This document shows positions 9,630 through 56,738 of a DNA stretch of 64,000 nt, piece after piece. The translations under genes were made by a program, and so were the position numbers. Under the pieces are notes generated by a model. The model was not told the DNA's origin. It saw only the letters and a list, made by a program, of their open reading frames with translations, and did not search any database. Origin of the DNA: Myxococcaceae bacterium. Lineage in GTDB: Bacteria > Myxococcota > Myxococcia > Myxococcales > Myxococcaceae. The number at the start of each line of letters is the position of its first letter. Position 1 is the first letter of the stretch. The DNA lies in the NCBI GenBank assembly GCA_016793095.1, contig JAEUJQ010000037.1:140244-204243 (forward strand), read 5' to 3'.

Positions 9630-12572
9630 ATGTCGGACGCGGTGGCACTGCTCGAGGCGGTCCGCGCTGAGGCGAAGCCCGGCGTCTGGTCGAACGGCGT
9701 GAAGCTCGCTCGCGCCGGCGCGGTCGTGCAGGAATCCGCGGACGGCGACGAGGTGGTGCTGCGCGTGAAGGCCGGCGGCCGCCCCGTGCCGTGGACGGTG
9801 GTGTTCTACCCGAAGGACGCGGCGTGGGAGTGCAACTGCCCGGCGCCGGTGGACCCGTGCGAGCACGCGGTGGCGGCCGCCATCACGCTGAAGGACGCGG
9901 CCGAGTCGGGCGTCGCGCTGGCCTCCGTCGAGGCGAAGTACGCGCGCGTCGTGTACCGCGTCGTGCGCCTGGAGAATGGCGTCCAGGTGCAGCGCTCCAT
10001 CGTGACGCCTGAGGGCGCCGAGACGCCCCTCGACTCGCTCGCCGCCGCCCTCGCGAACCCCGCGCTCGCGAAGCACCTGCAGGTGGAGCAGCACGACCTC
10101 CAGGCCGACCGGCTGCTCGAGAAGAAGACCCGGCTCGCGCTGCCGCCCGAACGCCTCGAGGCGCTGCTCGGCGTGCTCCAGCCCTGCCGCACGGTGCTGC
10201 TCGACGGCCGGCCGGTGGCCATCGCGGCCGAGCCCCTGCTGCCGAAGGTGACGGTGAAGGACGCCGGCGACGCCATCGTGGTGACGGTGGCGAAGGACGC
10301 GCGGGTGAGCGAGGTGCTGGCGCCGGGGGTCGCGCTGGCCGCCGACGCGCTCCACCGCCTCGGCGAGACGGCCTTCACGGGGCCCTGGCTCGAGCTCCTG
10401 CCGCAGGTGCGCAGCTTCCCCGCGAGCCAGGCCGGAGAGGTGAGCGCGAAGGTGGTGCCCGAGCTCGCCCAGCGCTTCCCCGTCGAGGTGTCCAGCACGC
10501 GCCTGCCCCGCATCGACCCGCGCCTCGAGCCGAGGGTGGTGCTCGAGGTGAACCAGCTCGAGCAGGGCCTCTCGGTGCTGCCCACGCTCGTCTACGGCGC
10601 GCCCGCCTGCGTGCGCATCGACAACGGCCGCATGGTGCACCTGCGCGGTCCGGTGCCCGTGCGCGACGAGGCGCAGGAGCAACGGCTCGTCCACCACCTG
10701 CGCGACACCTTGAACCTCGTGCCCGGCCGACGCACCACCGTGAGCGGCCCCGAGGCGGTGCGCTTCGCCGACTCGCTGCGTCGGTGGCGCGGCGGGCTCT
10801 CGGGCGACGCGGCGCGCAAGCTGTCCCCGGACATCACCCTGACGCCGAAGCTGCGCGTCGACGACCGGTCCTCCGCCGGCGCGCCATCGGTGGGCGTCAG
10901 CTTCGAGTTCGAGGTGCAGGGCGGCCCGCCCGACCTGCCGAAGACGGTCGACGGCGCCGCGGTGCTGCGCGCCTGGGAGGAGGGCTTCGGCCTCGTGCCC
11001 ATCGAGGGCGGCGGCTGGGCCCAACTGCCGACGGAGCTGCTCGAGGCCCAGGGCGCCCGCATCGCCGCGCTGCTCGCCGCCAGGCAGGAGAACGGCACCC
11101 TCGCCAACCACGCGCTGCCCCAGCTCGCGCAGCTCTGCGAGTCGCTCGACCAGCCGAAGCCTCCGGGCCTCGAGGCGCTGCGGCCCCTCGCCGAGGGCTT
11201 CGAGTCGCTGCCGCCGCCTGCGCTGCCGGTCGAGCTCACCGCGACGCTGCGGCCGTACCAGGCGCAGGGCGTGGCGTGGCTCCAGTTCCTCCAGCGCGCG
11301 GGGCTCGGCGGCGTGCTGGCCGACGACATGGGCCTCGGCAAGACGCTGCAGACGCTGTGCGTGCTGAAGAAGGGCGCGCTCGTGGTGTGCCCGACGAGCG
11401 TGCTGCCCACCTGGCTGGGCGAGCTGAAGCGCTTCCGGCCGTCCCTCTCCGTGAACGCCTACCACGGACCCGGCCGCGCGCTCGACGACGCCGACGTGAC
11501 GGTGACGACGTACGCCATCCTGCGGCTCGAGCTCACGAGCCTGTCCGCCCGCGAGTGGAGCGCCGTGGTGCTCGACGAGGCCCAGGCCATCAAGAACCCC
11601 GAGAGCCAGGCCGCGCGGGCCGCCTTCGCGTTGAGGTCCCCCTTCCGCCTCGCCCTCTCGGGCACGCCGGTGGAGAACCGCCTCGACGAGCTGTGGAGCC
11701 TGATGCACTTCACCAACCAGGGCCTGCTCGGCGGCCGCCGTGACTTCGACGAGAGGCTCGCGCGCCCCATCGCGGACGGCCGCCAGGACGCGGTCATCGA
11801 GCTGCGCAAGCGCCTCAAGCCCTTCGTGCTGCGCCGCCTGAAGAAGGACGTCGCGAAGGACCTGCCGCTGCGCACCGAGGTGGTCCGCCCCGTCACCCTC
11901 GACGAGCGCGAGCGCGCCACCTACGACGCGATTCACGCCGCCACGAAGGACGAGGTGGTGAAGCTGCTCGGCCAGGGCGGCAGCGTGCTCAAGGCGCTCG
12001 AGGCGCTGCTGCGGCTGCGGCAGGCCGCCTGTCACGTCGGGCTCGTGCCCGGCCAGCACGCGAAGACGTCGTCGAAGGTGCAGGTGCTCGTCGAGGCGCT
12101 CTCGACCGCGGTCGCCGACGGCCACAAGGCGCTGGTCTTCTCGCAGTGGACCTCTCTGCTCGACCTCATCGAGCCCGAGCTGACCGCCGCGGGCATCACC
12201 TTCTCGCGCCTCGACGGCTCCACGCCCGACCGCGGGGCCGTGACGAGCGCCTTCCAGGCCGAGGGCGGTCCCCCGGTGATGCTGCTGTCCCTCAAGGCGG
12301 GCGGCACGGGCCTCACGCTCACCGCCGCCGACCATGTCTTCCTCGTCGACCCGTGGTGGAACCCCGCCGTCGAGGCGCAGGCCGCCGACCGCGCCCACCG
12401 CATCGGCCAGGAGCGGCCGGTGCTCGTCTATCGCCTCGTCTCCCAGGGCACCGTCGAGGAGCGCATCCTCACCCTCCAGGACAAGAAGCGCGCGCTGTTC
12501 GAGGCGGCGCTCGGCGACGCACAGGCCGGCGGCGCCCTCACGAAGGACGACCTGCTCGAGCTGTTCTCCTGA
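9630..12572 (+). CDS. SNF2/RAD54-family DEAD-like helicase with an N-terminal SWIM-type zinc finger.
   Basis: The SWIM motif is [19 protein letters not shown]2_N motifs: [22 protein letters not shown]. Helicase C motifs: [40 protein letters not shown]. Confidence 0.9.
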
Positions 12573-16677: not shown

Positions 16678-18190
16678 GCCACGACTGGTCGGCCGACGGC
16701 ACGAGGCCCGGAGGCCCCGCTCCCCCATCGAGGTTGCGCAGGCGGAAGGTGAAGGTGGTGCCGACCGGCGCCGAGGTCCCCACGACGACGCGCTCTCCGC
16801 CGCCGGGCACGCGCTCCTGCATCGCCACCTGCAGGTCGCCGGCTGGAGTGCGGAAGGCCGACATCGCCGCCCACTGCTGCGCGAGGTTCGACGCGGCCGC
16901 CGCCACCTCGGTGATGCCCAGCGTGAGGTCGGGGAGGTAGTAGATGCCCGAGAGCGACGAGCTCGACTCCGAGTACGGGTAGGTGCACGACACGCCCGCG
17001 TCCCACTCGTTCAGCTCGGCCTCGACGCCGCCGTAGTAGGGAGGCGTCCACACCCCTCCATCACCGAGGCGAATCAGCTGGCGCACGGTGTCTCCGTTGG
17101 AGTCGTCGGCGCTGTAGATGACGTAGTGGCCCCGGTCGCTCACGTTGCACGAGTTGAGCGTCACTGTCGCCGGCACCCCCGGCCCCGCGTTGAGGTCCTT
17201 CACCAGCGACAGGCCGCCGTCGAGCTGCCAGACGAGCGTGCGGGCGCGGTCTTCGCCATCGGCGAGGTACGTCGACACGGCCTCCTCGCCGAGCCCCAGC
17301 CTCAGGCCAGAGGAGTAGCCGGCGTCGAGCAGCGGCGCGAAGCGCTCAGGGCCCCCGTCCGGCGGCGCGCTCGTCGTGTCCACCCGCGTCAACCACACGC
17401 CGCCGTCAACCGTCGTGGCCACGAAGACGGCGTCACCCAGCGCGCGCGCGTGGAAGGCGAGCGGCGCGGGCTTCCACACCAGCGCGTTTCGCTGGAACTG
17501 CATCGCGTCGTCGAAGCGGGCCACCAGCAGCTCGGTGGGCCCGTTCGAGGGCGTGCGCACGAAGACGAGCGCGAAGCCCTGCGGCAGCGCCAGCATCTGG
17601 AAGGGGGCGGTCATCGAGGCCTCGGCCGACAGCAGGGTGACGCCCCGCACGTCGGCGAAGCCGTCACAGTCGTTGTCCTCGCCGTCACAGCGCGTCTCAG
17701 CCGTCTGGTAGCGCGGGCCGTAGTCGCTCGCTTCGCAGGTGAGCTGACTGCCCGACTCGCAGCGGTTCCGCGCACCGGCGCAGACGCCGAGCGTCAGCGC
17801 GCACGCCTGCCGGTCGGTGACGTCGTCGTCCACCAGGCCGTCACAGTCGTCGTCCTTGTTGTTGCAGACCTCCATCGCGGGCTTGCCTTCGTTGACGCAG
17901 ATGCCGCTCCACACCCGCTCCGAGGTGCACACCTCGGTGCCCGGTTTGCACTCCCCACGCCCGCCACCGCAGGGCCGCGTGTCGCCCAGCTTGCACGCGC
18001 ACTCACCCTGCGCGGAGTCGAGGCGACAGAAGCCGTTGCGGCACGACGTCCCCCTCGGGCAGGGGCCGCTCTCGCCGCAGGTGATGCTGCAGTCCACGGC
18101 GGTGGGAGAATAGAACGAGCACCCGCTCGCGGCGCCCAGCGCGAGCCCGCCCACGAAGCCCGCCAGCGCTCTCAGAATCGGGTCACCCAT
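16619..18190 (-). CDS. Cys-rich repeat lipoprotein (MopE-like putative metal-binding repeats) with a C-terminal beta-rich domain.
   Basis: An internal Met gives MGDPILRALAGFVGGLALGAASGC (lipobox). The repeats are CxxGxCxxGxCxxxxxxC / C..DDDCDGLVDDD / CDGEDNDCDG. It overlaps the upstream TPR-PEGA gene by 19 bp, so they are probably an operon. Confidence 0.7.
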   Translation of the reverse strand: MGDPILRALAGFVGGLALGAASGCSFYSPTAVDCSITCGESGPCPRGTSCRNGFCRLDSAQGECACKLGDTRPCGGGRGECKPGTEVCTSERVWSGICVNEGKPAMEVCNNKDDDCDGLVDDDVTDRQACALTLGVCAGARNRCESGSQLTCEASDYGPRYQTAETRCDGEDNDCDGFADVRGVTLLSAEASMTAPFQMLALPQGFALVFVRTPSNGPTELLVARFDDAMQFQRNALVWKPAPLAFHARALGDAVFVATTVDGGVWLTRVDTTSAPPDGGPERFAPLLDAGYSSGLRLGLGEEAVSTYLADGEDRARTLVWQLDGGLSLVKDLNAGPGVPATVTLNSCNVSDRGHYVIYSADDSNGDTVRQLIRLGDGGVWTPPYYGGVEAELNEWDAGVSCTYPYSESSSSLSGIYYLPDLTLGITEVAAAASNLAQQWAAMSAFRTPAGDLQVAMQERVPGGGERVVVGTSAPVGTTFTFRLRNLDGGAGPPGLVPSADQSWLIVGWREANQLRARKVCAP

Positions 18191-19344
18191 GAGGCCGCCA
18201 CTCCGTTCGGGGAAGGCATGAAGAAGAAGCCCGACTCGGACTCGTCGGGAGAGCTCGCGAGGCTGACGATGGTCGCGACGACGCCGCCGGCCACCGCGAG
18301 CACGGAGGCGGTGATGAACACCCCGGCCAGCGTCTGGTCGCGCAGGCCGCCCTGCTCCACCGAGACGCGCATCGGGTCCCACGCGCCGCCCACGCGATAG
18401 AACTCGGAGACCTGCCGCGAGGCGTTGCCGGACTGCACGGCGAACAGCACGCCCAGGCCCGCCGAGACGACGCCGACGCCGAAGAGGATGACGCCCACGA
18501 CCGGGAAGCGCCCGCCGCCGCCTCCTCCTGCCGAGGCGCTGCCGCCCGGCACGAGCTTGAGCTTCACCGTGCGCGGCTTGCCCGCCTCGACGATGACGTC
18601 GGTGCGCGCCGACTGGAAGCCGTCGAGCTCGGCGATGAGCTCGTGGGAGCCGGGCGTGAGCTCCACCTTCGTCGGCGACAGGCCGGCCAGCTTGCCGTCC
18701 AGCATCAGCACCGCGTCCTTCGGGTCCGTCTCGATGGTGATCTCCACCGGGCCCGCCTTCTTCTTGAAGGACAGGGCGACGTCCTTCGTGGAGCCGGACG
18801 CCAGCTCGAAGGTCTCCTCTGCGGGCTCGCTCTCGCCGTCTCGCACGGCGCGAACGGTGTGCCTGCCCGGCCCCAGCAGCACGGGCTCGGCCAGCGGCGT
18901 CACGCCCACCTCTTCGCCGTCCACCAGGACCTTCGCGGGCGCCCCCTCGACCGTCACCGTCACCTTCGAGGTGAGCGCGCGGATCTGCGCCAGCTCGCTC
19001 TCGACGCTCTCGCGGCGGTCGGCCGGCACCTTCTTGCCGCCCTCCTCGAGGTAGCGGTTCAGGGTGCGCACGGCCTGGCCGTACTTGAAGAGGCGCCGCT
19101 CGGTGAGGCCGAGGTTGTAGAGCACCTCGAAGCTGGGCAGGGCCTGGTACGCGGCGCGGAACTCGGCGAGGGCCGACGCGAAGTCACCCTCTTTGAAGAG
19201 CGCGACGCCCTTCTTGTAGTGGTCCGCAGCCTCCTTCTTGGCGGCGGCTTCCTTCTTCGCGTCCTCCTTCTTCGCGGCCCCTTGCGCGAAGGCGACCGGT
19301 GCCGAGAGCAGCGTCAGCGCGAGCAACCAGCGGAGAGGAAACAC
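18172..19344 (-). CDS. Secreted TPR-repeat + tandem PEGA-domain protein with a C-terminal TM/Gly-rich region.
   Basis: Signal peptide MFPLRWLLALTLLSAPVAFA. TPR-like helices (YKKGVALFKEGDFASALAEFRAAY). Two PEGA-like modules (VDGEEVGVTPL..., LDGKLAGLSPTKVELTPGSHEL). Confidence 0.75.
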   Translation of the reverse strand: MFPLRWLLALTLLSAPVAFAQGAAKKEDAKKEAAAKKEAADHYKKGVALFKEGDFASALAEFRAAYQALPSFEVLYNLGLTERRLFKYGQAVRTLNRYLEEGGKKVPADRRESVESELAQIRALTSKVTVTVEGAPAKVLVDGEEVGVTPLAEPVLLGPGRHTVRAVRDGESEPAEETFELASGSTKDVALSFKKKAGPVEITIETDPKDAVLMLDGKLAGLSPTKVELTPGSHELIAELDGFQSARTDVIVEAGKPRTVKLKLVPGGSASAGGGGGGRFPVVGVILFGVGVVSAGLGVLFAVQSGNASRQVSEFYRVGGAWDPMRVSVEQGGLRDQTLAGVFITASVLAVAGGVVATIVSLASSPDESESGFFFMPSPNGVAASWVTRF

Positions 19345-19387
19345 GGCGCCGAGTGTAGTCCAGCCAGCCCGAAGTGCGACGCGCGCG

Positions 19388-21013
19388 TCACTCGTAGGGG
19401 TTCGTCTCGTCCACCGTCAGCTTGCCGCCCTTCTTGCCCGTGGGCGGGGGTCTGCCGGTCTTCGGCTCCTTCGGCTGCTTCACCCCGTCGGGCTGCGCGG
19501 GACCTCCGCCAGCGGCGGCGACGAGGCGCTCGAGCGTGAACGTCTCCTCGCGGGGGACGTCGAACGACACGTTCAGCGTGCGGGCCTCGTGCCCCTGCGC
19601 CGACGCGATGACGGAGAGCGAGGTGCCCTTCTCGCGCGTGACGGTGACCGGGTTGCCCTCGAGCTTCTCGCCGTCCACCTCGAAGCGCGTCGAGGGGGGC
19701 TCGGCCTTCAGCGTCACCGCGACGCTGACGGGGACGGCGGGCTTCGGCGGCTCGGGCGCCTTCGGGGTCCGGTCGGGAGGCTCTGACGCCTTCGCGGGGA
19801 GCTTCACCACCACGGGCTCGTCTTCGCTCTTGCCGAGCGCGAGGAAGAGGCCGGCGCCGACGATGAGGCCCACCGCAGCGATGGCGACGCCGATGACGAG
19901 GCCAGACCGGCTCGCGGGCGGCGCGTCATCGACCGACTCCAGCGAGGTCGCGGAGCGCTGCGAGGGCGGCGGAGTCTTCGCGCGGCGAGCCGGTGAGCGT
20001 GGGGCGGGCTCCTCGTCCATCGTCTGCGCGGCGGGCGTCTTCGCGACGGAGCTCCGACGTCCCGGGGAGGTGCCCGGCAGGCGGGCGGGGCCGGAAGGAG
20101 GCCTCGGCGTTCCGCCAGAGACGGTGCGTGCGCCGGCCTCCTGCGCGATGTCGTAGAGCGTGGAGAGGTCGCCCGGCTTCACCAGGGCCTGCAGCGACTC
20201 CTTCACCTTTGTCGCGTCTCTCGGGCGGCGCTCCGGCTCCTTCACCAGCAGCGAGTCGACGAAGGCGCAGAGCTTCGCGGGCAGGTCAGGGCGCACGGTG
20301 CCGAGCGGGTCGTGCTCTTCCTTGAGCAGCTTGGCGAGCGTGGCGATGTCGCTGTCGGCGTCGTACGGGGCGCGGCCGCCGAGCAGCTCATAGAGCACGG
20401 CGCCCACCGAGTAGAGGTCGGCGCCGGGTCCGAGCGTCTTCTGTCCGAGCACCTGCTCAGGCGCCATGTACTTGGGTGTGCCGACGGCCGTGCCCGAGTG
20501 CGTGAGGCCCGTGGACTGGCCGAAGCGGGAGATGCCGAAGTCGAGCAGCTTCACCAGCCGCTGCGGCCGGGTGCAGAGGAAGATGTTGGCGGGCTTGATG
20601 TCGCGGTGAATGACGTTGGCGGTGTGCGCGGCGGCGAGGGCGTCGAGCAGGGGGCTGATGATGCCGACCGCCTCGGCTGGCGCGAAGACGCCGTGCTTCT
20701 TGTAGACGGCCTTCAGCGTCGCGCCCTCGAGGTACTCCATGACGATGAAGGGCTCGCCGTCGTCCGTCTCGCCCATGTCGAGCACGTCGACGATGCCGGG
20801 GTGGTTGATGACGGCCGCGGCGCGGGCCTCGAGCTCGAAGCGCTTCAGCACGTCGTCCCGGTCCGCGAGGTCGGCGATGAGCACCTTGATGGCGACGCGC
20901 CGGCCGATGGCCCTGTTGGTCGCCGAGTACACGGCGCCCATGCCGCCTTTCCCGAGCACGCCATCGATGAGGTACTTGCCGGCGAACGTGGTGCCGGCCT
21001 CGAGGACTGTCAC
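19388..21013 (-). CDS. Ser/Thr protein kinase (Hanks type) with a Pro-rich linker, a TM helix and a C-terminal PEGA-like domain.
   Basis: GKGGMGAVY, VAIKVL, HRDIKPANIFL, DFGIS, GTPKYMAPE. Then a P/S/A-rich segment, a TM helix (LVIGVAIAAVGLIVGAGLFLAL) and a PEGA-like C-terminus. Confidence 0.9.
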   Translation of the reverse strand: MTVLEAGTTFAGKYLIDGVLGKGGMGAVYSATNRAIGRRVAIKVLIADLADRDDVLKRFELEARAAAVINHPGIVDVLDMGETDDGEPFIVMEYLEGATLKAVYKKHGVFAPAEAVGIISPLLDALAAAHTANVIHRDIKPANIFLCTRPQRLVKLLDFGISRFGQSTGLTHSGTAVGTPKYMAPEQVLGQKTLGPGADLYSVGAVLYELLGGRAPYDADSDIATLAKLLKEEHDPLGTVRPDLPAKLCAFVDSLLVKEPERRPRDATKVKESLQALVKPGDLSTLYDIAQEAGARTVSGGTPRPPSGPARLPGTSPGRRSSVAKTPAAQTMDEEPAPRSPARRAKTPPPSQRSATSLESVDDAPPASRSGLVIGVAIAAVGLIVGAGLFLALGKSEDEPVVVKLPAKASEPPDRTPKAPEPPKPAVPVSVAVTLKAEPPSTRFEVDGEKLEGNPVTVTREKGTSLSVIASAQGHEARTLNVSFDVPREETFTLERLVAAAGGGPAQPDGVKQPKEPKTGRPPPTGKKGGKLTVDETNPYE

Positions 21014-21450
21014 GACGAGGAGTGTACCCCACGAGGGGCGGCCGTCTCGTTCGGCGGTGGCTGATCACCGGGCGCATCCCACATTCGCGGCTCGCACGGG
21101 CGCGTCGTCTTCACGCCCGCAACTCGACGACGAAGCCCGCGTCCAGGTTGATCCCGCACGACCGTGGAGGTGGACCGAGTCGCGGGCCGAACCTGCCGAA
21201 TGGGCCGACCGGCGCGCCGGCCACGTCGTCAATGGTTCGGAGTACCCGGACGAGGGCCGCACCGCAGCAGTCCACGCGAGCTGGCGAAGCTGACTGCCGA
21301 GAAGGCGGCTCCAGGCGAGGGACCAGGTGTTCCAGGACTGGAACCCGCTCGAGACCGCGCGGCAGAAGGCCGCCCCCGGGGGACACCCCATGCCCTCCGC
21401 AGGAGACACGGCTCCTGTCGGGCTCACCTCGAGGAGCCCCCACGCGGCTG

Positions 21451-21688
21451 GAGGGTGGGCTGCGGAGCTCGTGAGGGTGGGTTGCGGAGCTCGTGAGGGT
21501 GGGTTGCGGGGCTCGTGAGGGTGGGCTGCGGAGCTCGTGAGGGTGGGTTGCGGAGCTCGTGAGGGTGGGTTGCGGAGCTCGTGAGGGTGGGTTGCGGAGC
21601 TCGCGAGGGTGGGTTGCGGAGCTCGTGAGGGTGGGCTGCGGAGCTCGTGAGGGTGGGTTGCGGAGCTCGTGAGAGTGGGTTGCGGAGC
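21451..21688. repeat. Perfect or near-perfect tandem array of a 22-bp unit GAGGGTGGG(T/C)TGCGGAGCTCGT, about 10.8 copies, in a 1.3-kb divergent intergenic region.
   Basis: Read directly. Units differ only by C/T at position 10 and rare single substitutions. The array is followed by the 12-bp perfect palindrome GTGCACGTGCAC (about 21696..21707). No spacers are present, so this is not CRISPR. Confidence 0.9.
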
Positions 21689-21778
21689 GTGGGGGTGCAC
21701 GTGCACCGCGCCCTCAACTGATGTGAGCGGAAGCGCCCGAACGCACGGTCGGCGGCGCGTGCCCGGGCCGCGAGTCCT

Positions 21779-21815
21779 GCAATTCGTTGCGCCCGCCAAC
21801 ATTGTGCAGGACTCG
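21779..21815. repeat. Copy 1 of a dispersed 36-bp direct repeat pair (ATTCGTTGCGCCCGCCAACATTGTGCAGGACTCG).
   Basis: A second copy with 4 mismatches (GATTCGTTGCCGCCTCCAACATTCTGCAGGACTCG) lies about 124 bp downstream. Both are intergenic. Confidence 0.8.
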
Positions 21816-21902
21816 TGACGCCCGATCACCGCAGGCGCTCGCGCCCGCCGCACCACGCGACGCCTTCCGCAGGAGGAGCGGCTGTGGTCGTCGGGAGCCC
21901 GG

Positions 21903-21940
21903 CGATTCGTTGCCGCCTCCAACATTCTGCAGGACTCGCG
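21903..21940. repeat. Copy 2 of the 36-bp direct repeat pair.
   Basis: See copy 1. The sequences were compared by eye. Confidence 0.8.
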
Positions 21941-22340
21941 GTGGGCTCAGCCCGCCACCTGTGACGTACCGCGGTCGACAGTGGGAGAGGGCGTCACCCG
22001 ACGAGGTGGCGCGGCTGACAGGGTACGCCACGGGGCGGGAGATGCTGCAGGCCAACGCCGCGTTGCCCAGGCGGGATGAGTGGGTGGAGAAGCGGGCCAA
22101 GGCCCTCGTCGAGGAGCTGGGAGGGCGCAGGGAAGTGGTTCCAGAATCCGGTAGGCGCCTCGCAGCACTGAGCAGCGCGTGCGGACGGGTGCAGTCTCCT
22201 ATGGCTCTTCTGCCGGGCGAGGGCCCTGAGCGTCGCGTCGAGGGGCCTGACGTGACAGGGGGCGCTGGCCCGCGACGAGCGCTTCCGGGAACCAACGCAT
22301 GCCTGCAAGTGAGCGCGGGTTGCGGCATAAGGCGCGCGTC

Positions 22341-23270
22341 ATGCGTGGCTTCGCTGTCCTCTGCTTGCTCCTCACGGCCTGCGCCGCGAGCGACATCCGC
22401 GTTCCCGACGAGCACGTGGTCGCCGGATCGCGCGCGAAGGGTCGCGGCGTCGAGGTCTGTGTGCTGATGCAGGAGCGCTGGCCCCGCGCGCGCTTCGAAG
22501 GTGTCGCTGAGCTCTCGTTCGCGCGGTGGGACTACGGCATCGCCTCGGTCCTCGTGAAGCACCCCGACGGCCTCGTCGTCATCGACCCGGCGTTCGGCCG
22601 CGACGTGGTGCGGGACCTCGCGCGCGCGCCGATGCTGTTCCGCCTGGCCATGGGGCCGACACGGCTCAAGCGCCCCCTGCGAGACGTGATGGAGGAGGCC
22701 GGCCTCGACCCTGAGGCGGTGACGGTCGCGCTGCCGACGCACGTGCACTGGGACCACGTGGGCGCGCTGGGCGACCTGCCGAACGCCCGCGTGCTCCTGC
22801 CGCGCGCCGAGCTCGAGTGGGCCAACACCCTGAAGGGCTATCTGGACGGCGGCGCGATGCCGCACCACCTCGCCCGCGCGAAGGAGCGGCTGCGCCTGTA
22901 CGAGTTCGACGGCCCGGCGCGTGACGGCTTCCCGTCGTCCTTCGACGTCTTCAACGACGGCTCGATCGTCGCCGTCCCCCTGCCGGGCCACACGCCCGGG
23001 CACACTGCGTTCCTCGTGAAGCTCGTGGACGGCCGCTCCGCCCTCTTCGTGGGTGACGCCTCCTGGGCAATGCGCGGCGTCGAGGCGCCGGTGCACAAGC
23101 TGATTCCCCTCGACCACGACCACGCCCAGACGGGGGAGTCGCTCGGGCTCCTGCACGCCCTGTGGCAGCACCGGAAGGACGTGCTCGTCATCCCCGCGCA
23201 CGACGCTGCCGCCCACGACCAGCTGCCCTCGTGCGTCCCGCCGCCGGCGCCCGGCACGGTGACGCGATGA
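22341..23270 (+). CDS. Metallo-beta-lactamase-fold hydrolase lipoprotein (lactonase/MBL superfamily).
   Basis: Lipoprotein signal MRGFAVLCLLLTAC. MBL motifs HVHWDHVG (HxHxDH), ...LPGHTPGHTAF..., FVGDASW. ORF 22299..23270, with an internal ATG at 22341. Confidence 0.85.
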   Translation: MRGFAVLCLLLTACAASDIRVPDEHVVAGSRAKGRGVEVCVLMQERWPRARFEGVAELSFARWDYGIASVLVKHPDGLVVIDPAFGRDVVRDLARAPMLFRLAMGPTRLKRPLRDVMEEAGLDPEAVTVALPTHVHWDHVGALGDLPNARVLLPRAELEWANTLKGYLDGGAMPHHLARAKERLRLYEFDGPARDGFPSSFDVFNDGSIVAVPLPGHTPGHTAFLVKLVDGRSALFVGDASWAMRGVEAPVHKLIPLDHDHAQTGESLGLLHALWQHRKDVLVIPAHDAAAHDQLPSCVPPPAPGTVTR

Positions 23271-23540
23271 CCACACTCGCCCACGAGCCGACGTCGACCG
23301 TGACTGCCCGCCTGAACGGTGACGCAATGACGGTACTCGCCAGGCAGAAGCCGACATCGACCGTGACTCCCGCCCCCACGGTGACGCGATGACGACACCC
23401 GCCGCCCACGAGCCGACGGCGACCGTGACTGCCCGCCGGCACGGTGACGGCGCCTGGCTCGCGCCGCTCGCAGGACACGACCATCGGGAACGGGCGCGCC
23501 TCCTCCGACGGGCGGCACGGTGACGCGATGACGACGCTCG
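23254..23540. repeat. About 62-bp tandem repeat (3 full + 1 degenerate copies). Each copy is a miniature gene junction (…ACGGTGACGCG-ATGA-CGAC…), ending at the real start of the metal-binding protein gene.
   Basis: The units begin CACGGTGACGCGATGAC(C/G)AC(A/G)C.CGCC...GAGCCGAC.TCGACCGTGACTGCCCGCC. The first copy overlaps the stop of the MBL gene. The last copy is the true ATG (MTTLACLALL...). Confidence 0.85.
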
Positions 23541-24690: not shown

Positions 24691-25294
24691 GACCGTGCTG
24701 TCGGCGCAGCGGGTGGCGGTGGCGGGCCGGCTCGCGCCGCTGTCCCTCACGCTGTCGCCCGGCGACGTGCACGCGCTGGTCGGGCCGAACGGGTGCGGCA
24801 AGTCGACGTTCCTGGACTGCGTCCTGGGGCTGCAGCCCTTCGACGGAACGCTCTCGCTCCTCGACGGGATGACGGTGGCCATGGTGCCGCAGGCCTTCAC
24901 GGGCTCCTCGACCTCGGCCGTTACCGTGCTCGAGCTCCTCGCTGCCTCGCGCACCACCCGGCCCTCGTGGCTCGGCCTGTCCGCCCGGGTCCGCCAGCAG
25001 TGCCTCGACGCCCTGGCGTTGACGAACGCGGCCGGTCTGGCCCCGGCGCGGCTGGCGACGCTCTCAGGTGGGGAGCTTCGCCGGGTCCTCCTGGCCGACG
25101 CGCTGGCGAAGCGGCCGGGCCTGCTGCTGCTGGACGAGCCCGAGGCCGGCCTCGATGACGCCTCTCGCGTGACGCTCGAGCGGGCGCTGACGGACGCCCG
25201 CGCATCGGGAGTGACGACCCTGTGGGTCTCGCACGACGCTGCCGCCGTGCAGCGGCTCGCGACGCACACCACGCGGGTGGGAGCGCCGGCATGA
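24686..25294 (+). CDS. ABC transporter ATP-binding protein (ZnuC-like).
   Basis: Walker A GPNGCGKST, signature LSGGELRR, Walker B LLLLDEPEAGLD, H-loop VSHD. ATGA overlap with the permease gene. Confidence 0.8.
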   Translation: MTTVLSAQRVAVAGRLAPLSLTLSPGDVHALVGPNGCGKSTFLDCVLGLQPFDGTLSLLDGMTVAMVPQAFTGSSTSAVTVLELLAASRTTRPSWLGLSARVRQQCLDALALTNAAGLAPARLATLSGGELRRVLLADALAKRPGLLLLDEPEAGLDDASRVTLERALTDARASGVTTLWVSHDAAAVQRLATHTTRVGAPA

Positions 25295-26115
25295 ACGAGT
25301 TGTTGGCGCTCGACTTCGTGAAGCGCGCGCTCCTCGCGGTGCTGCTGGCGGCGCCGATGCTGGGGTTGTTGTCTCCGCTCGTCCTCTCGCGGCGGCTCGC
25401 CTTCTTCTCGGCTGCGCTGGGGCAGGCCGTGCTCACTGGAGTGTCTCTGGGCATCCTCCTCGGAGAGCCCGCCGACGCGCCCTGGGCCAGCGTCTTCGGC
25501 TTCTCGCTGCTGTGCGGCGTGGGCCTCGTCTTCGTGCGCCGCCGCTCGTCGCTGCCGCCGGACACGCTGGTCGGCGTGCTGCTCGCCTTCACGCTCGGCC
25601 TCGGCGTGCTGCTGCTGGTGGTGGTGACGAAGCGCTTCAACGTGCACCAGCTCGAGGCGGTGATGTTCGGCTCGGTGCTGACGGTGACGCGGGCCGACCT
25701 CGTGGTGCTCGCGGTCGCGCTGGTGGTGGTGCTGGCGGGCCTCGTGCGCTTCCACAACGCCCTGCTGCTCGACGCCCTCGACGCCCGGGTGGCCGCCGCG
25801 GCGAAGCTGCCTTCGGCGGCGCTGGAGTACGGGCTGGTGGTGCTGCTCACCGTCGTCATCGTCGCCTCGGTGAAGGTGCTGGGCGCGTTGATGGTCGAGG
25901 CGATGCTGCTGGTGCCAGCGGCCGCGGGCCGGAACGTCGCCCGGAGCGTCGCGGGCCTCACCCTGGCGAGCGTGGTGGTGGCGTGCGTGAGCGCCGTCGG
26001 AGGCGTGCTCGTCTCTGCGCGCCTCAACGCGCCATCGGGCGCCGCCATCGTGCTGCTCCTCGCGGCGGCCTTCGTGCTGACGCTGCCGTTCTCGCGCCGA
26101 CATGAGTCGCGCTGA
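25291..26115 (+). CDS. ABC transporter permease (ZnuB/ABC-3 family).
   Basis: About 8 hydrophobic helices. The start MNELLALDFVKRALLAVLLAAPMLGLLSP is typical of ZnuB/MntB-type permeases. It uses an internal ATG of ORF 25222..26115. Confidence 0.8.
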   Translation: MNELLALDFVKRALLAVLLAAPMLGLLSPLVLSRRLAFFSAALGQAVLTGVSLGILLGEPADAPWASVFGFSLLCGVGLVFVRRRSSLPPDTLVGVLLAFTLGLGVLLLVVVTKRFNVHQLEAVMFGSVLTVTRADLVVLAVALVVVLAGLVRFHNALLLDALDARVAAAAKLPSAALEYGLVVLLTVVIVASVKVLGALMVEAMLLVPAAAGRNVARSVAGLTLASVVVACVSAVGGVLVSARLNAPSGAAIVLLLAAAFVLTLPFSRRHESR

Positions 26116-26389
26116 GCCGTCGAGCATGAGGTGGCTCGTCCACGCCGCAGTCGAACGGAGGGCCGTGGCGTTCCAGGCCCTCGCGTGAGGAGCGCAGCGG
26201 ACCGTGCGGGAGCTCCCGGCGCGGCCTGGGCGGCGGTCCGGCCCGGAAGCAGAAGCAAGACGCCGACGCAGGGCTGCGACGATGAGGCCGTGGACCGTGA
26301 GCAAGACATGCGGGAGCCGAGGCCCACGGGGATGGCTGGTGGGTGGTGCGCACGCCGGGACACGACGCCCCGCCCGGAGCGTGCACGGC

Positions 26390-26836
26390 TCAAGGAGCGA
26401 GGGCGGCGCCCGCCTCACTCCGCCACCACCCCAGCGCTGCGTCGAGGTTCTGCCTCGCCCGCTCGCTGAGCTGCTCGCCGAGGCCGAACTGCCACCCGCG
26501 AATCGCCAGCAGGCGCGCCCGCGGCGGCGGCTTGCCCGTCACCCGCTGGTAGACGGCCAGCAGCCCTCCCGGCGAGAGGTGGTGCGTCGAGACGGTGACG
26601 TGAGGCCCCGGCGTCAGCTCGAAGACCTCGAAGGGCTCCTTCCCCGAGGTGCTGGCGTCGACGAAGAGCACCTCGTCGCGGCCGACGAGGTCGAGCGCGT
26701 GCTCGGGCTGCAACTGGTAGTCGACGAGCATCTCGACGTCCGACCGCCGCGCCGCCTCTCCGACGAAGGCGGCCCCCAGGCCGTCGTCACCGCGCGAGGG
26801 GTTGCCCCAGCCGAACACGAGCACGCGCGCCTTCAT
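26390..26836 (-). CDS. hoxW: [NiFe]-hydrogenase maturation endopeptidase (HoxW/HybD family).
   Basis: VLVFGWGNPSRGDDGLGAAF (GNxxxxDDGxG metal-binding motif), ...HHLSP.... Size 148 aa. Immediately downstream of the large subunit, with an ATGA overlap. Confidence 0.8.
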   Translation of the reverse strand: MKARVLVFGWGNPSRGDDGLGAAFVGEAARRSDVEMLVDYQLQPEHALDLVGRDEVLFVDASTSGKEPFEVFELTPGPHVTVSTHHLSPGGLLAVYQRVTGKPPPRARLLAIRGWQFGLGEQLSERARQNLDAALGWWRSEAGAALAP

Positions 26837-28269
26837 GCATCGCCCCGCCTCAGGGAGCTCACCACCTCACCCCGGGCGTCCACCAGCGACACCTCGAGCG
26901 GCATCTTCCCCATCGCGTGCGTGGCGCAGGACAGGCAGGGGTCGAACGCGCGCACCGCGACCTCGACGTGGTTGAGCAGCCCCTCGGTGATGCGGTGGCC
27001 CTCGATGTACTGCCGGGCGACGGAGCGGATGGCCTCGTTCATCGCCTGGTTGTTGTTGGTGGTGGAGACGATGAGGTTGCAGCGCGTGATGAGGTCGTCT
27101 TCGCCCACCTCGTAGTGGTGAATGAGGGTGCCGCGCGGCGCCTCGATGATGCCGACGCCTTCCCGCTGCCGCTCACCCGTCGAGACGAGCTCGCCCATCA
27201 CCAGCGCCTCGTCGTGCAGCAAGTGCTCGATGTCCTCGGCGCAGTGGAGCAGCTCCACCATGCGCGCCCAGTGGAACGCCAGCGGCGCGTGGTTGATGCC
27301 CGTCGTGCTGGCCAGGAAGTCCCTGCGGGCGGCCTCGGCCAGCGGCGTCGAGAGGCGGTCGCAGACCTGCAGCCGCGCGAGCGGGCCCACCTTGTACCAA
27401 CCCGACTCCGGGCCCATCGCCGCGAGGTACGGGAACTTCATGTACGACCAGGGCCGCACCTCCTCCTTGATGAGGTGGCGGTACGAGGAGGCGTCGAGGC
27501 CGTCGAACAGCACACGCCCGTCGGCGTCCTTCGCGCGCAGGCCACCGTCGTAGAGGTCGAGGGAGCCGTCCGCGGCCACGAGGCTGAGCAGCGCCGAGGG
27601 CACGGTGCCGAAGCCCTTGTGTCGCTCGACGTTCTTCAAGGTGAGCTCGCGCGCGAGCGCCACCGCGTCGAGCGACCACGCCTTGATGTCGGGGAGCTGC
27701 TTCAGGAAGGCGTCGCGCGCGTCGATGGCCAGGTGCCTGTTGACGCCGCCCGGAATCGCCCCGGTGCCGTGAATGCGCTTGCCGTACACGGCCTCGAGCA
27801 CCTGCTGCCCGAACTTGCGCAGCAGCACGCCCTTCTTCGCCAGTTCCGGGTGCTTCTCGACGAGGCCGATGAGGTTGCGCTTCGAGACGTCGCTGTCGAA
27901 GCCGAAGAGCAGGTCCGGCGAGGCGAGGTGGAAGAAGTGCAGCGCGTGCGACTGCAGCAGCTGGCCGGCGTGCATCAGCCGCCGCAGCTTGACGGCGGAC
28001 GGCGGGGGCACCGCGCCCACCACGGCGTCGAGCGCCTTCGCGGCGCAGAGGTTGTGCGAGACGGGGCAGATGCCGCAGAGGCGCTGCACCACCACCGGCA
28101 CTTCCCAGTACGGCCGGCCGACGATGAAGGCCTCGAAGCCGCGGAACTCGACGATGTGCAGCCGCGCCTCGTGCACGTGGCCGGCGTCGTCGAGCAGCAG
28201 CGTCACCTTGCCGTGCCCCTCGACGCGGGAGAGGGGGTCGATGGCGATGCGGCGCAGGGTCTCAGTCAT
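26833..28269 (-). CDS. hoxH: [NiFe]-hydrogenase large subunit, NAD-reducing/bidirectional type (group 3d-like HoxH).
   Basis: N-terminal RLCGICPVSH (L1 Ni-binding CxxC) and C-terminal DPCLSCATHAMG (L2 CxxC + His, the cleavage site for the maturation protease). Confidence 0.9.
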   Translation of the reverse strand: MTETLRRIAIDPLSRVEGHGKVTLLLDDAGHVHEARLHIVEFRGFEAFIVGRPYWEVPVVVQRLCGICPVSHNLCAAKALDAVVGAVPPPSAVKLRRLMHAGQLLQSHALHFFHLASPDLLFGFDSDVSKRNLIGLVEKHPELAKKGVLLRKFGQQVLEAVYGKRIHGTGAIPGGVNRHLAIDARDAFLKQLPDIKAWSLDAVALARELTLKNVERHKGFGTVPSALLSLVAADGSLDLYDGGLRAKDADGRVLFDGLDASSYRHLIKEEVRPWSYMKFPYLAAMGPESGWYKVGPLARLQVCDRLSTPLAEAARRDFLASTTGINHAPLAFHWARMVELLHCAEDIEHLLHDEALVMGELVSTGERQREGVGIIEAPRGTLIHHYEVGEDDLITRCNLIVSTTNNNQAMNEAIRSVARQYIEGHRITEGLLNHVEVAVRAFDPCLSCATHAMGKMPLEVSLVDARGEVVSSLRRGDA

Positions 28270-55230: not shown

Positions 55231-56738
55231 GCCGCGGGTTGCAGGGCGTCGGTGCGGGCGAACGCGAGGAAGACGTCTTCGAGGGAGAGGGACTCGATGA
55301 CGGTGCCCTCGGGCCAGACGGTGGACCGCCAGAGCTCCGGCGGCGCGCGCACGACGTCCCCACGAACGATCTCGAAGCCGGGCGGGAGCACGTGGGGCGC
55401 CACCAGCCCGGGAGCGGCGGACACGAGCCGCGGCTCGCCAGGAACCGGCGGGACGGCGGCGGCGGCAGGCTCCCCGGGGGCAATGCCGGTCTCGACGGCG
55501 GACGAGCCGATAGCGGACGACCCGCGCCCCGCCGGCTCACGTGCGGCCGACTCACGTGCGGCCGACTCACGTGCGGCCGGCTCACGTGCGGCCGACTCAC
55601 GTGCGGCCGACTCACGTGCGGCCGGCTCACGTGCGGCCGGCTCACCTGCGGCCGACTCACTAGCGACCGACTCACCTGCGGCCGACTCACCTGCGGCCGA
55701 CTCACCTGCGGCCGACTCACGTGCGGCCGACTCACCTGCGGCCGACTCACCTGCGGCCGACTCACGTGCGGCCGACTCACCTGCGGCCGACTCACCTGCG
55801 GCCGACTCACCTGCGGCCGACTCACGTGCGGCCGACTCACGTGCGGCCGGCTCACCTGCGGCCGACTCACGTGCGGCCGGCTCACCTTCGGCCGACTCAC
55901 CAGCGACCGACTCACGTGCGTCCGGCTCACCTTCGGCCGACTCGCTCATGGCCGACTCATTTGCAGCCGACCCGACCGCACCCGGGGCGACGGCGCGCGG
56001 CGCCACGGAAGCGGCTCGGGCATCGGGCGCCGGCCACCTCACGCGCCGCACCGACTCGAGCAGCCACGGCACCTCGCCCTCGATGCGCATCTTCCCCGAG
56101 TGGATGATGCCGACGCGGTGCGCGACCTGCTGCACCTCGTCCACCAGGTGCGACGAGAGGAACGCCGTGCAGCCGCGCTCCTTCACGATGACCGAGACGA
56201 GGTCATTGAACTCGCGGCGCGCGACCGGGTCGAGGCCGGTGGTGGGCTCGTCGAGCAGCAGCAGCTCGGGGCGCGGCGCCAGGGCGAGCGCGAGGCCCAG
56301 CTTGGTGCGCGTGCCGCCGGACAGCTCCATCGCGCGCTTGTCGAGCGGCACGTCGAGCAGCTTGCAGAGGCGCTCGAACTCCGGCCCGTCCCACGTCGGG
56401 TAGAAGCCCGCGACGAAGCGGCCCAGCTCGCGCCCGCTCATCCACGGGTAGAAGTGCTGCTCCTGCGAGACGGAGCCGATGCGCCGCTTCAGCTCGACCG
56501 GCACCTTCTTCACCTGCTGGCCGAGCACCTCGACCGTGCCCGCGTCCGCGTGCAGCACGCCGGTGAGGATGCGCAGCGTCGTCGTCTTGCCCGCGCCGTT
56601 GCGGCCGAGGAAGCCGTAGATCTCTCCGCGCTTCACCGCGAGCGAGAGGCCGTCGAGGGCGATGGCGCGCCCGAAGCGGCGCTTCACGTCGGTCAGCTTC
56701 AGGGCGTCGGTCACGCGCCGGAGTATGGGGGAGCCCAC
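55227..56738 (-). CDS. ABC transporter ATP-binding protein with a roughly 145-aa (A/G)ESA(A/R) pentapeptide-repeat insertion before the C-terminal EDVFL segment.
   Basis: Walker A GRNGAGKTT, Q-loop, signature LSGGTRTKL, Walker B LLLLDEPTTGLD, H-loop SSHL. The start is GTG near 56738 or 56713, which is uncertain. The ORF track merges it with upstream antisense artefact (55227..57911). Confidence 0.8.
   Translation of the reverse strand: MGSPILRRVTDALKLTDVKRRFGRAIALDGLSLAVKRGEIYGFLGRNGAGKTTTLRILTGVLHADAGTVEVLGQQVKKVPVELKRRIGSVSQEQHFYPWMSGRELGRFVAGFYPTWDGPEFERLCKLLDVPLDKRAMELSGGTRTKLGLALALAPRPELLLLDEPTTGLDPVARREFNDLVSVIVKERGCTAFLSSHLVDEVQQVAHRVGIIHSGKMRIEGEVPWLLESVRRVRWPAPDARAASVAPRAVAPGAVGSAANESAMSESAEGEPDARESVAGESAEGEPAARESAAGEPAARESAARESAAGESAAGESAAGESAARESAAGESAAGESAARESAAGESAAGESAAGESVASESAAGEPAAREPAARESAARESAAREPAARESAARESAAREPAGRGSSAIGSSAVETGIAPGEPAAAAVPPVPGEPRLVSAAPGLVAPHVLPPGFEIVRGDVVRAPPELWRSTVWPEGTVIESLSLEDVFLAFARTDALQPAA
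55531..55975. repeat. In-frame 15-bp tandem repeat (GCCGACTCAC(G/C)TGCG, about 29 copies) inside the ABC ATPase gene.
   Basis: Read directly. On the coding (minus) strand it encodes ...AGESAARESAAGESAAGESA.... Units vary at 1-2 positions (G/C and ggc/gac). Confidence 0.9.

Follow-up and report, generated by a model that had tools for sequence, protein, structure and literature searches.

The 64,000-nucleotide stretch of Myxococcaceae DNA that we analysed (hereafter, the window) contains a gap of 1,327 bp (21014-22340), which separates a Ser/Thr kinase gene on the minus strand from an MBL-hydrolase/znuACB operon on the plus strand. The flanking genes are:

19388..21013, minus strand: Ser/Thr protein kinase gene, left flank (Pfam PF00069, E 1.6e-48)
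22341..23270, plus strand: MBL-fold hydrolase gene, right flank (Pfam PF00753), heading an MBL-znuA-znuC-znuB operon

The sequence-only reading had placed the gap between a kinase gene and an MBL/znu cluster of these orientations, and the matches to PF00069, PF00753 and ZnuA agree. Downstream of the MBL gene, Pfam identifies ZnuA and then an ABC ATPase and ABC-3. The MBL protein has 100% identity to an NCBI protein from a metagenome-assembled genome labelled ‘Myxococcaceae bacterium’. Exact-match look-ups with the window's MBL and kinase proteins returned no match, and a contig scan for the orthologous locus found none, only distant MBL relatives. On a crude gene map, the window has other gaps of at least 0.75 kb, and at least one of these is partly coding. 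The window's kinase gene is collinear with the kinase genes of two relatives, L017 and L019.

Aligning the locus with those of its relatives shows that most of the gap is specific to this lineage. In L017, the closest sampled relative, the gene order is identical and the nucleotide identity is 87-89%, and ~200 bp lie between the kinase and MBL genes. The more distant relative L019 (77% identity) has ~135 bp at the orthologous site. By blastn, the window matches L017 at 17001-21103 and at 22301-23281, with no match between the two, and the 68-88 bp of L017 that lie between the matching flanks are unrelated to the window's sequence. Because L017 has only ~200 bp here and its flanks align, 21104-22300 is a lineage-specific insertion. 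The gap had been called unusually long from its sequence, and with only ~135-200 bp at orthologous loci, that description is borne out. The gap thus divides as follows:

21014..21103, no strand assigned: ancestral kinase-proximal intergenic part, 84% identity to L017 7800-7891, solid to 21084
21104..22300, no strand assigned: lineage-specific non-coding insertion of ~1.2 kb, replacing ~68-88 bp of the closest relative L017
22301..22340, plus strand: ~40 nt conserved before the MBL ATG, from an alignment of 7 orthologous upstream regions

The insertion ends just upstream of a ~40-nt stretch that precedes the MBL start codon, is conserved in relatives and presumably comprises the core promoter/operator and the ribosome-binding region. 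No part of the insert is conserved at the relatives' loci. When the left and right parts of the gap are aligned locally with each other, the score is at chance level (25 vs 22.5 +/- 2.8) and reveals no larger hidden duplication. Six-frame translations of the gap, compared by tblastn with all fetched loci and the remainder of the window, give no paralogous fragment. In L022, a different, unrelated insert occupies this intergenic site and includes a 59-bp x 3.8 array of its own. Our searches found no second genome of this species, and the nearest relative (89% identity) has none of the insert at 21104-22300.

An origin is known for only ~10% of the insert. The recognisable piece is of phage descent:

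21993..22117, plus strand: phage gene fragment of 41-42 codons (phrog_9880, Bbp10 / internal virion protein D family)

This 125-nt fragment is a piece of the giant internal-virion-protein gene of BPP-1-like podophages. A phmmer search of 1.84 billion proteins matches it to P0121 (E 3.3e-9), and by BLASTP 30 of 41 residues are identical (73% amino-acid identity). The three matched proteins belong to phrog_9880, with E values of 1e-186 to 1e-209 (best 1.6e-209), and their genes lie in BPP-1-like gene neighbourhoods on phage contigs. At the DNA level, the fragment is 72-75% identical to L026 and L027 and 67% identical to L028. Phage relatives of the full-length giant protein include the bbp10 gene, which belongs to BPP-1 (PMC4819975 Table 2). 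Only the search with the full-length protein tied the family to named phages; the GenBank phage collection, searched with the insert DNA and a 60-aa peptide, gave no match.

The boundaries of the fragment are sharp, and its differences are biased towards the third codon position (9/6/20 by codon position), a substitution pattern that shows the signature of past selection at the protein level. The ~8 kb remainder of the giant gene is absent, so that the fragment amounts to ~1.5% of the gene. The match shows that at least part of the insert is decayed foreign phage DNA. Neither the insertion nor this phage fragment was visible to the sequence-only reading. Like decayed prophage and phage remnants in other bacterial chromosomes, the fragment is short, in frame and derived from a phage structural gene, and it now lies isolated in non-coding DNA. 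Unlike them, it has only 125 nt that can be recognised, and the insert retains neither an integrase or attachment site nor any further phage gene. Second and third candidate phage fragments (21203-21273 against L026 and 21804-21895 against L027) were rejected, as 14-22% of shuffled inserts score equally.

The most conspicuous feature of the insert is a tandem array:

21451..21688, plus strand: 22-bp x 10.8 head-to-tail minisatellite with unit GAGGGTGGGTTGCGGAGCTCGT (TRF score 434)

The array had been described from the sequence as about 11 high-fidelity copies of a 22-bp unit. TRF concurs, with a period of 22, 95% matches, 0% indels, the consensus GAGGGTGGGTTGCGGAGCTCGT and 10.8 copies, a number that could be an assembly estimate, as the sequence comes from a metagenome-assembled genome. 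With one mismatch allowed, ten units match the 22-mer (0.00 expected in shuffles), and the units abut without spacers. In an in-register listing, the units show a C/T variant at unit position 10 plus three singleton variants. Variants are common to non-adjacent units, and blocks of several units share 95-97% identity. The units at the ends are degenerate, and a decayed further unit reaches ~21706. The plus strand of the array is G-rich, with a GC skew of +0.5 to +0.6, and the array forms one long relaxed-loop G4 region (21453-21657), which is not distinctive, the window having 24 such regions.

All three minus-strand frames are open across the array. The sequence-only reading had noticed one of them, correctly, and had raised the prospect of a hidden gene for a low-complexity protein. 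Such an unannotated minus-strand gene would correspond to an ATG-initiated ORF of 286 aa (21065-21925) that spans the array and encodes a 22-aa-periodic protein. We regard this gene as highly improbable. The minus-strand frames are open because the reverse complement of the unit has no stop triplet, and long open frames are expected by chance in 72% GC DNA. Codon-usage scores in the insert do not exceed 0.2 bit per codon in any of the six frames, compared with 0.4-1.1 in the flanking genes, and across the array they are negative in all six frames, with flat GC3. The period of 22 bp is not a multiple of 3, so gain or loss of one or two units would shift the frame. Among 5.8 billion proteins, the ORF has no homologue, and it contains no Pfam domain; the same holds for the remainder of the insert, where a search with all six frames finds no homologue and Pfam no domain. 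Finally, the DNA of the ORF is missing in the closest relatives, including L017.

Three smaller elements follow the array:

21695..21706, no strand assigned: 12-bp perfect palindrome GTGCACGTGCAC, overlapping the decayed last array unit
21769..21815, no strand assigned: 47-nt repeat copy 1, with a perfect 11-bp inverted repeat CGAGTCCTGCA...TGCAGGACTCG
21892..21938, no strand assigned: 47-nt repeat copy 2, with its left arm decayed and its hairpin lost

The palindrome, to which the earlier reading had also pointed, is present and starts 6 nt past the array end, but it occurs at chance frequency: the window has 57 perfect 12-nt palindromes (0.89 per kb), and the gap has 2 where ~1.2 are predicted. 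Similarly, the repeat pair reported as two 36-bp copies ~200 bp further on is real, with an alignment score of 54 vs 18.3 +/- 2.9 in shuffles, but its length is 47 nt and its copies begin 81 and 204 nt past the array. The two copies are 83% identical and 123 nt apart, with a 76-nt gap. Inspection by hand rejected an integron attC site for the 47-mer, as the GTTRRRY and RYYYAAC cores are missing. A CRISPR array was also rejected, given that no spacers separate the 22-bp units and that the 47-nt repeat occurs just twice, at 83% identity and with 76 nt between the copies.

Copy 1 of the 47-mer forms a strong hairpin on either strand (-28.4 / -29.4 kcal/mol, z = -3.8 / -4.7). This much better fold than in shuffles would suit an insert whose transcript is a functional non-coding RNA or a long structured 5' leader, with the array and the 47-nt hairpin as RNA elements. 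The fold of the array region, too, is somewhat better than that of its shuffles (z = -2.7), but good folding is a trivial consequence of tandem repetition. In copy 2 the hairpin is gone and no compensatory changes are seen (z = -0.8 and -0.2), and relatives conserve nothing of the insert. Rfam 15 gives no family, its best matches reaching 18-21 bits against thresholds of 36-78 (E about 0.5), and a consensus scan finds neither promoter-like nor terminator-like sites. We therefore give an RNA function, including the small RNA suggested from the sequence alone, only a slim chance. A Guanidine-III candidate at 21230-21314 was rejected: its 18.3 bits fall short of the threshold of 36 (E 0.58), and the alignment needs an insertion of 35 nt at a place where the model has 8.

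The layout of the insert invites comparison with non-autonomous mobile elements that carry an internal minisatellite. The BrickBuilt MITE of Porphyromonas gingivalis is intergenic and has a spacerless 23-nt tandem array between leader and tail subunits (PMC4596501). Our insert is superficially similar as an intergenic insertion with a spacerless array, of 22 nt instead of 23, between non-repeat sequences that take the place of ‘leader’ and ‘tail’, and with palindromic repeats near the array; the 47-nt hairpin repeats would then be structured subunits. This likeness concerns layout, and no similarity of sequence is implied. No terminal inverted repeats pair the ends of 21104-22300, and the junction alignment shows no clean target-site duplication. 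We detected no multiplicity either: neither a second copy of the 22-mer nor a second locus of the 47-mer was found in the 64-kb window, the JGI metagenome contigs or IMG/VR. The phage gene scrap inside the insert is also unexpected for a MITE. On balance, a BrickBuilt-like origin seems quite unlikely.

The array unit does have one near match close by, in the conserved region before the MBL gene:

22309-22325, plus strand: 17-mer GTGAGCGCGGGTTGCGG in the conserved region, matching the array unit at 15 of 17 positions

Matches to the 17-mer with at most 2 mismatches are expected 0.01 times per 64-kb window, and the unit lies 640 bp away. Pure neutrality does not predict this match. The resemblance hints at shared ancestry with the promoter-region site or at a factor that may bind at both. 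However, unit and promoter motif have only GGGTTGCGG in common; the unit lacks GCGGCATAA, where the motif is most conserved. Candidate promoter assignments in this region were rejected. By hand, the sigma-54 candidate TGGCAC..TTGC in the L017 promoter region has a GG-to-GC spacing one base short, and this sigma-54-like sequence is not conserved in L019 or L022. For a -35/-10 assignment of CTGCAA-17-CATAAG in the conserved 40 nt, a consensus scan found no site.

A period of 22 bp is about two helical turns, as is typical of iteron and centromere arrays, and the R6K plasmid has seven 22-bp iterons. We therefore considered whether the array is a protein-binding platform, either an iteron- or centromere-like array of phage or plasmid origin, or a decoy or cooperative array for a factor at the promoter site that contains GGGTTGCGG. 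The decoy or cooperative variant could modulate how strongly the zinc-uptake operon or the kinase is expressed. A 22-bp period sets successive sites on one face of the helix, the unit resembles the conserved promoter-region 17-mer (15/17), and at least some of the insert comes from phage. In L026, a related phage contig, a 21-bp x 4.2 array even lies ~1 kb away from a ParB-like gene, although the 22-mer finds no match there when up to 3 mismatches are allowed. Weighing against a platform, the insert neither contains nor adjoins a Rep, ParB or regulator gene, DnaA boxes and an AT-rich unwinding region are both missing, and GCGGCATAA is not part of the unit. The array is missing in all relatives, which means that the operon works without it. 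We consider a binding platform unlikely.

The sequence-only reading had also proposed two specialised functions, an origin-like and a parS-like element, and neither is supported. No DnaA box (TTWTCCACA-like) occurs in the region, GC stays at 0.68 or above in all 100-nt segments of the gap, with no AT-rich stretch, and there is no Rep gene. The abutting ~22-bp repeats, here in ~10 copies and with phage-derived DNA near, do recall iteron origins and tandem-repeat centromeres. They differ from these in having no Rep or ParB partner, AT-rich unwinding element or DnaA boxes, and in lying in a chromosomal intergenic region between conserved core genes. As for parS, the pattern TGTTNCACGTGNAACA, allowing up to 3 mismatches, does not match 21692-21709. 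Compared by hand, the palindrome region has 5 mismatches to the M. xanthus parS consensus TGTTCCACGTGGAACG, a 16-bp palindrome (PMC3899335).

A more far-reaching possibility is that the 22-bp units bind or titrate the factor of the promoter motif, and that changes in copy number tune MBL-znuACB in a contingency-type manner, alongside other clade-specific tandem expansions. For the contingency element and the transcription-factor array suggested by the sequence-only reading, the 15/17 match is the one supporting observation. We think such a tuning role improbable. If it were true, with the resemblance and the clustering of repeats reflecting selection, it would mean repeat-number tuning of metal uptake in a myxobacterium.

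The lineage is prone to tandem duplication. Operon gene junctions in the window carry a 62-bp x 3.3 array and a 107-bp x 4 array, and L017 has two different tandem duplications at junctions; L019, L020 and L025 have none. Copy-number variation between strains is the defining property of a VNTR, which was among the earlier proposals for the array. The evidence favours it, as the array is non-coding, private to one lineage and homogeneous, has decayed edges and lies near other tandem duplications; it stands as a candidate only. Like the intergenic minisatellites and VNTR loci used in MLVA typing, it has a head-to-tail unit within 10-100 bp, is non-coding and lacks spacers, and it shares with VNTR loci a high unit identity, decayed edge units and restriction to one lineage. 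Unlike them, it lies in recently acquired DNA rather than in an old intergenic region.

Taken together, these observations lead us to favour, with some confidence, a recently expanded non-coding minisatellite, a candidate VNTR, within ~1.2 kb of lineage-specific functionless DNA. The array is most likely an ordinary slippage-born minisatellite, not a gene, an origin, a partition site or a known RNA, and it probably has no dedicated function. In this model, a 22-bp unit would first have been duplicated within unconstrained DNA and then amplified and homogenised via replication slippage or unequal recombination, which would have left the central units near-identical and the edge units decayed. 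Two side effects are conceivable. The array may space the divergent promoters more widely, and its G-rich strand, with GGGTGGG every 22 nt, may fold into G-quadruplexes and thereby promote additional changes in copy number.

For now, the finding is of minor importance beyond illustrating that unconstrained, partly phage-derived intergenic DNA can spawn a minisatellite. For annotators, it is a warning that the 286-aa ORF across the array is spurious, and for users of metagenome assemblies, a caution that array copy number may be unreliable in them. For this uncultured Myxococcaceae lineage, the array is a candidate strain-typing marker.

The 22-bp repeat array between the Ser/Thr kinase and MBL-fold hydrolase genes is, in our preferred reading and with moderate confidence, a young, neutral minisatellite, born by slippage in unconstrained, partly phage-derived DNA that was inserted between two conserved genes. 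The gap that holds it is 1,327 bp long; beyond the MBL hydrolase gene come znuA, an ABC ATPase gene and an ABC-3 permease gene. NCBI has a protein with 100% identity to the MBL product, from a metagenome-assembled 'Myxococcaceae bacterium'.

Features of the gap and its flanks (window positions)
19388-21013, minus: Ser/Thr kinase gene, left flank of the gap
21065-21925, minus: 286-aa ORF crossing the array
21451-21688: 22-bp array, consensus GAGGGTGGGTTGCGGAGCTCGT (Tandem Repeats Finder)
21769-21815: 47-nt repeat, copy 1
21892-21938: 47-nt repeat, copy 2
22341-23270, plus: MBL-fold hydrolase gene, right flank of the gap

Tandem Repeats Finder reports one strong array in the gap (period 22, 10.8 copies, 95% matches, 0 indels, score 434), and 10 units lie within one mismatch of the consensus against none in shuffled sequence, which bears out the 22-bp tandem array of the sequence-only reading. 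In register, units 1, 4 and 9 carry a C/T variant at position 10, and there are three singleton changes besides. At the end of the array the last full unit is decayed, as is a further partial unit, and the two merge into the palindrome GTGCACGTGCAC (21695-21706). This 12-bp palindrome is present as described but unremarkable, because the window's 57 perfect 12-nt palindromes (0.89 per kb) predict one or two in a gap of this size, and two are there. The repeat pair described as 36 bp long is real (83% identity; alignment score 54 versus 18 ± 3 by chance) but spans 47 nt. Copy 1 contains a perfect 11-bp inverted repeat, with a strong hairpin on both strands (z = -3.8 and -4.7); in copy 2 the left arm is gone, and folding is no better than that of shuffled sequence. 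Apart from the standing of the palindrome and the length of the pair, the original observation was confirmed.

In the nearest relative with DNA to compare (L017, taken from a Logan assembly), gene order is unchanged on either side, the MBL protein is 89% identical to that of the window, and the kinase-MBL gap measures only ~200 bp. By blastn, 17001-21103 and 22301-23281 align to it at 87-89% identity with nothing between, and window 21104-22300 replaces 68-88 unrelated bases. In L019, which is more distant (77% identity), the site spans ~135 bp. The 1.2 kb is therefore an insertion in the window's lineage, gained after its separation from L017. An unrelated insert of ~480 bp occupies the same site in L022, so the site tolerates insertions. 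The latter locus (L022 2386-3000) comes from the more distant Myxococcus sp. MAG GCA_014879945.1; its insert holds an 89-aa lysine/alanine-rich basic ORF (2445-2714), whose 3' end is repeated beyond the stop codon in a tandem array of 59 bp x 3.8 (2658-2880). Another indel separates the window from L017 3' of znuB (window 26091-26390 versus L017 11370-12779), where the window lacks two features of L017, a glycosyl-hydrolase family 1 gene and a small ORF.

Part of the insert has a recognizable relative. In the right part of the gap, only ~21960-22100 (plus frame 1) looks weakly coding, and a phmmer search of this segment against 1.84 billion representative proteins matched three giant proteins of 1,458-2,806 aa (best E 3.3e-9); BLASTP against the best match, P0121, gave 30/41 identical residues. 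The giant proteins match PHROG 9880 (E 1e-186 to 1e-209), and a tblastn search of GenBank phages links them to the large genes of Bordetella phage BPP-1 (bbp10), Pseudomonas phage AF, and Xanthomonas and Caulobacter podophages. Published work (PMC4819975, Table 2) gives Bbp10 as the homologue of T7-type internal virion protein D. On the contig encoding P0121, the giant gene has BPP-1-type capsid genes (Pfam Phage_Bbp19, GP7 and Bbp16) upstream of it. As DNA, 21993-22117 matches with sharp boundaries, aligning to three BPP-1-like phage contigs at 72% (L026, ungapped), 75% (L027, ungapped) and 67% identity (L028, few gaps). Among 41 codons compared, 17 are identical, 13 differ synonymously only and 11 non-synonymously, with 9/6/20 differences at codon positions 1/2/3; the fragment therefore diverged while part of a working gene. 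Today it is an orphan scrap, ~1.5% of an 8-kb gene. The rest of the 64-kb window has no match to these contigs, and the rest of the insert, as a concatenated six-frame query, has no protein homologue. Since homology is confined to 21993-22117, ~90% of the insert is without a match to a known origin. Two weaker phage matches inside it were rejected as being at the level of shuffled controls. L026, the contig with the fragment's closest relative, also bears a tandem array, of 21 bp x 4.2 (24747-24835), within a small gene on the minus strand and ~1 kb away from a ParB_N/HTH_ParB gene (25878-27434); the 22-mer has no hit in that array at ≤3 mismatches.

Insertion of such partly phage-derived DNA between the kinase and MBL genes would have supplied unconstrained sequence, in which slippage would have produced the 22-bp minisatellite. 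Second among four rivals is the proposal that the insert is a MITE-like element. In form, the nearest published parallel is the BrickBuilt MITE of Porphyromonas gingivalis, likewise with a spacerless array, of 23 nt (PMC4596501), but neither its defining ends nor its multiplicity was seen in this region. The two ends of the insert are not paired by inverted repeats, which speaks against a mobile element, and neither the 22-mer nor the 47-mer core has another copy in the 64-kb window, JGI metagenome contigs or IMG/VR.

The least favored rival is that the array is a coding repeat, the hidden low-complexity protein gene named in the sequence-only reading as its refutation. The genome has 71.7% GC, with GC3 of its genes at or above 0.9, and all three codon-position GC curves are flat across the gap. 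A codon-usage log-odds score, trained on 25 long ORFs from the window, stands at 0.4-1.1 bit/codon for the flanking genes, is negative in all six frames of the array and reaches at most 0.2 bit/codon anywhere in the gap. The 286-aa ORF has no Pfam domain and no homologue among 5.8 billion proteins, and, the period being 22 bp, a copy-number change of one or two units would put the sequence out of frame. A hidden protein gene is thus unsupported. For a non-coding RNA, the third-ranked rival, Rfam returned only noise in the region. The suggested origin-like element also failed to find support (no DnaA-box-like site, no Rep-like gene, no 100-nt stretch with GC below 0.68), as did a parS-like one: the parS pattern at ≤3 mismatches misses the palindrome, which differs from the M. 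xanthus consensus TGTTCCACGTGGAACG (PMC3899335) at 5/16 positions.

Conservation among relatives upstream of the MBL gene is limited to the ~40 nt next to the start codon (...GGTTGCGGCATAAGGCG...ATG), at window 22301-22340 and at the corresponding sites in L017, L019, L022, L023 and L025; the core, GGTTGCGGCATAA(G/C)GC, lies ~10 nt 5' of the ATG. The insertion edge coincides exactly with the end of this block, which presumably contains the operon's core promoter/operator, left intact by the insertion. A compact promoter/operator is one possible identity of the block, a Zur-type site for the znu operon another; a sigma-70 consensus scan found no site. The repeat finder places a twelfth family member here, outside the array: GTGAGCGCGGGTTGCGG (22309-22325), which matches the 22-bp unit at 15/17 positions, when only 0.01 matches per 64 kb are expected for a 17-mer at ≤2 mismatches. 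The L017 orthologue of this 17-mer, GTGGCACCGGGTTGCGG, matches the unit less well (12/17, by hand). Either the native 17-mer, copied in the window's lineage, may have seeded the unit, or one putative binding factor may have shaped both, as in the first-ranked rival, a protein-binding array. The binding idea is weakened because the unit lacks GCGGCATAA, where the native motif is best conserved.

Further lineage-specific tandem duplications lie less than 3 kb from the 22-bp array.

Tandem duplications at operon junctions (window positions)
23248-23449: 62-bp x 3.3 array, MBL/znuA junction, 76% identity
24286-24716: 107-bp x 4.0 array, znuA 3' end to znuC 5' start, 93% identity

The 62-bp array is built around the stop/start overlap GTGACGCGATGACG. 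Each 107-bp unit holds the overlap GCGATGACGCGATGACG; ~320 bp of duplicated junction separate the znuA stop (24364) from the likely znuC start (24686), and the duplication yields chimeric mini-ORFs. L017 has a single copy in place of the 107-bp array, a different duplication at the MBL/znuA junction (95-bp x 2.1; L017 8864-9061) and another at znuC/znuB (110-bp x 1.9; 10397-10608), and L019, L020 and L025 have no such junction duplications. This one operon has thus gained junction duplications independently in two sister lineages, and, with L022 added, the clade generates tandem repeats easily. Elsewhere in the window, a 15-bp x 27.5 array (55531-55943, 90% identity, unit GCCGACTCACCTGCG) reads on the minus strand as (E-S-A-A-G/R)n, a pentapeptide repeat with a methionine ahead of it near 55950; the array probably encodes the repetitive N-terminus of the gene ending at 53416, which would make it a coding repeat.

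The 22-bp array is a fresh example of an already known kind of feature, and its general interest is low; only its likeness to the promoter motif and the way duplications cluster around the zinc-uptake operon could raise it.
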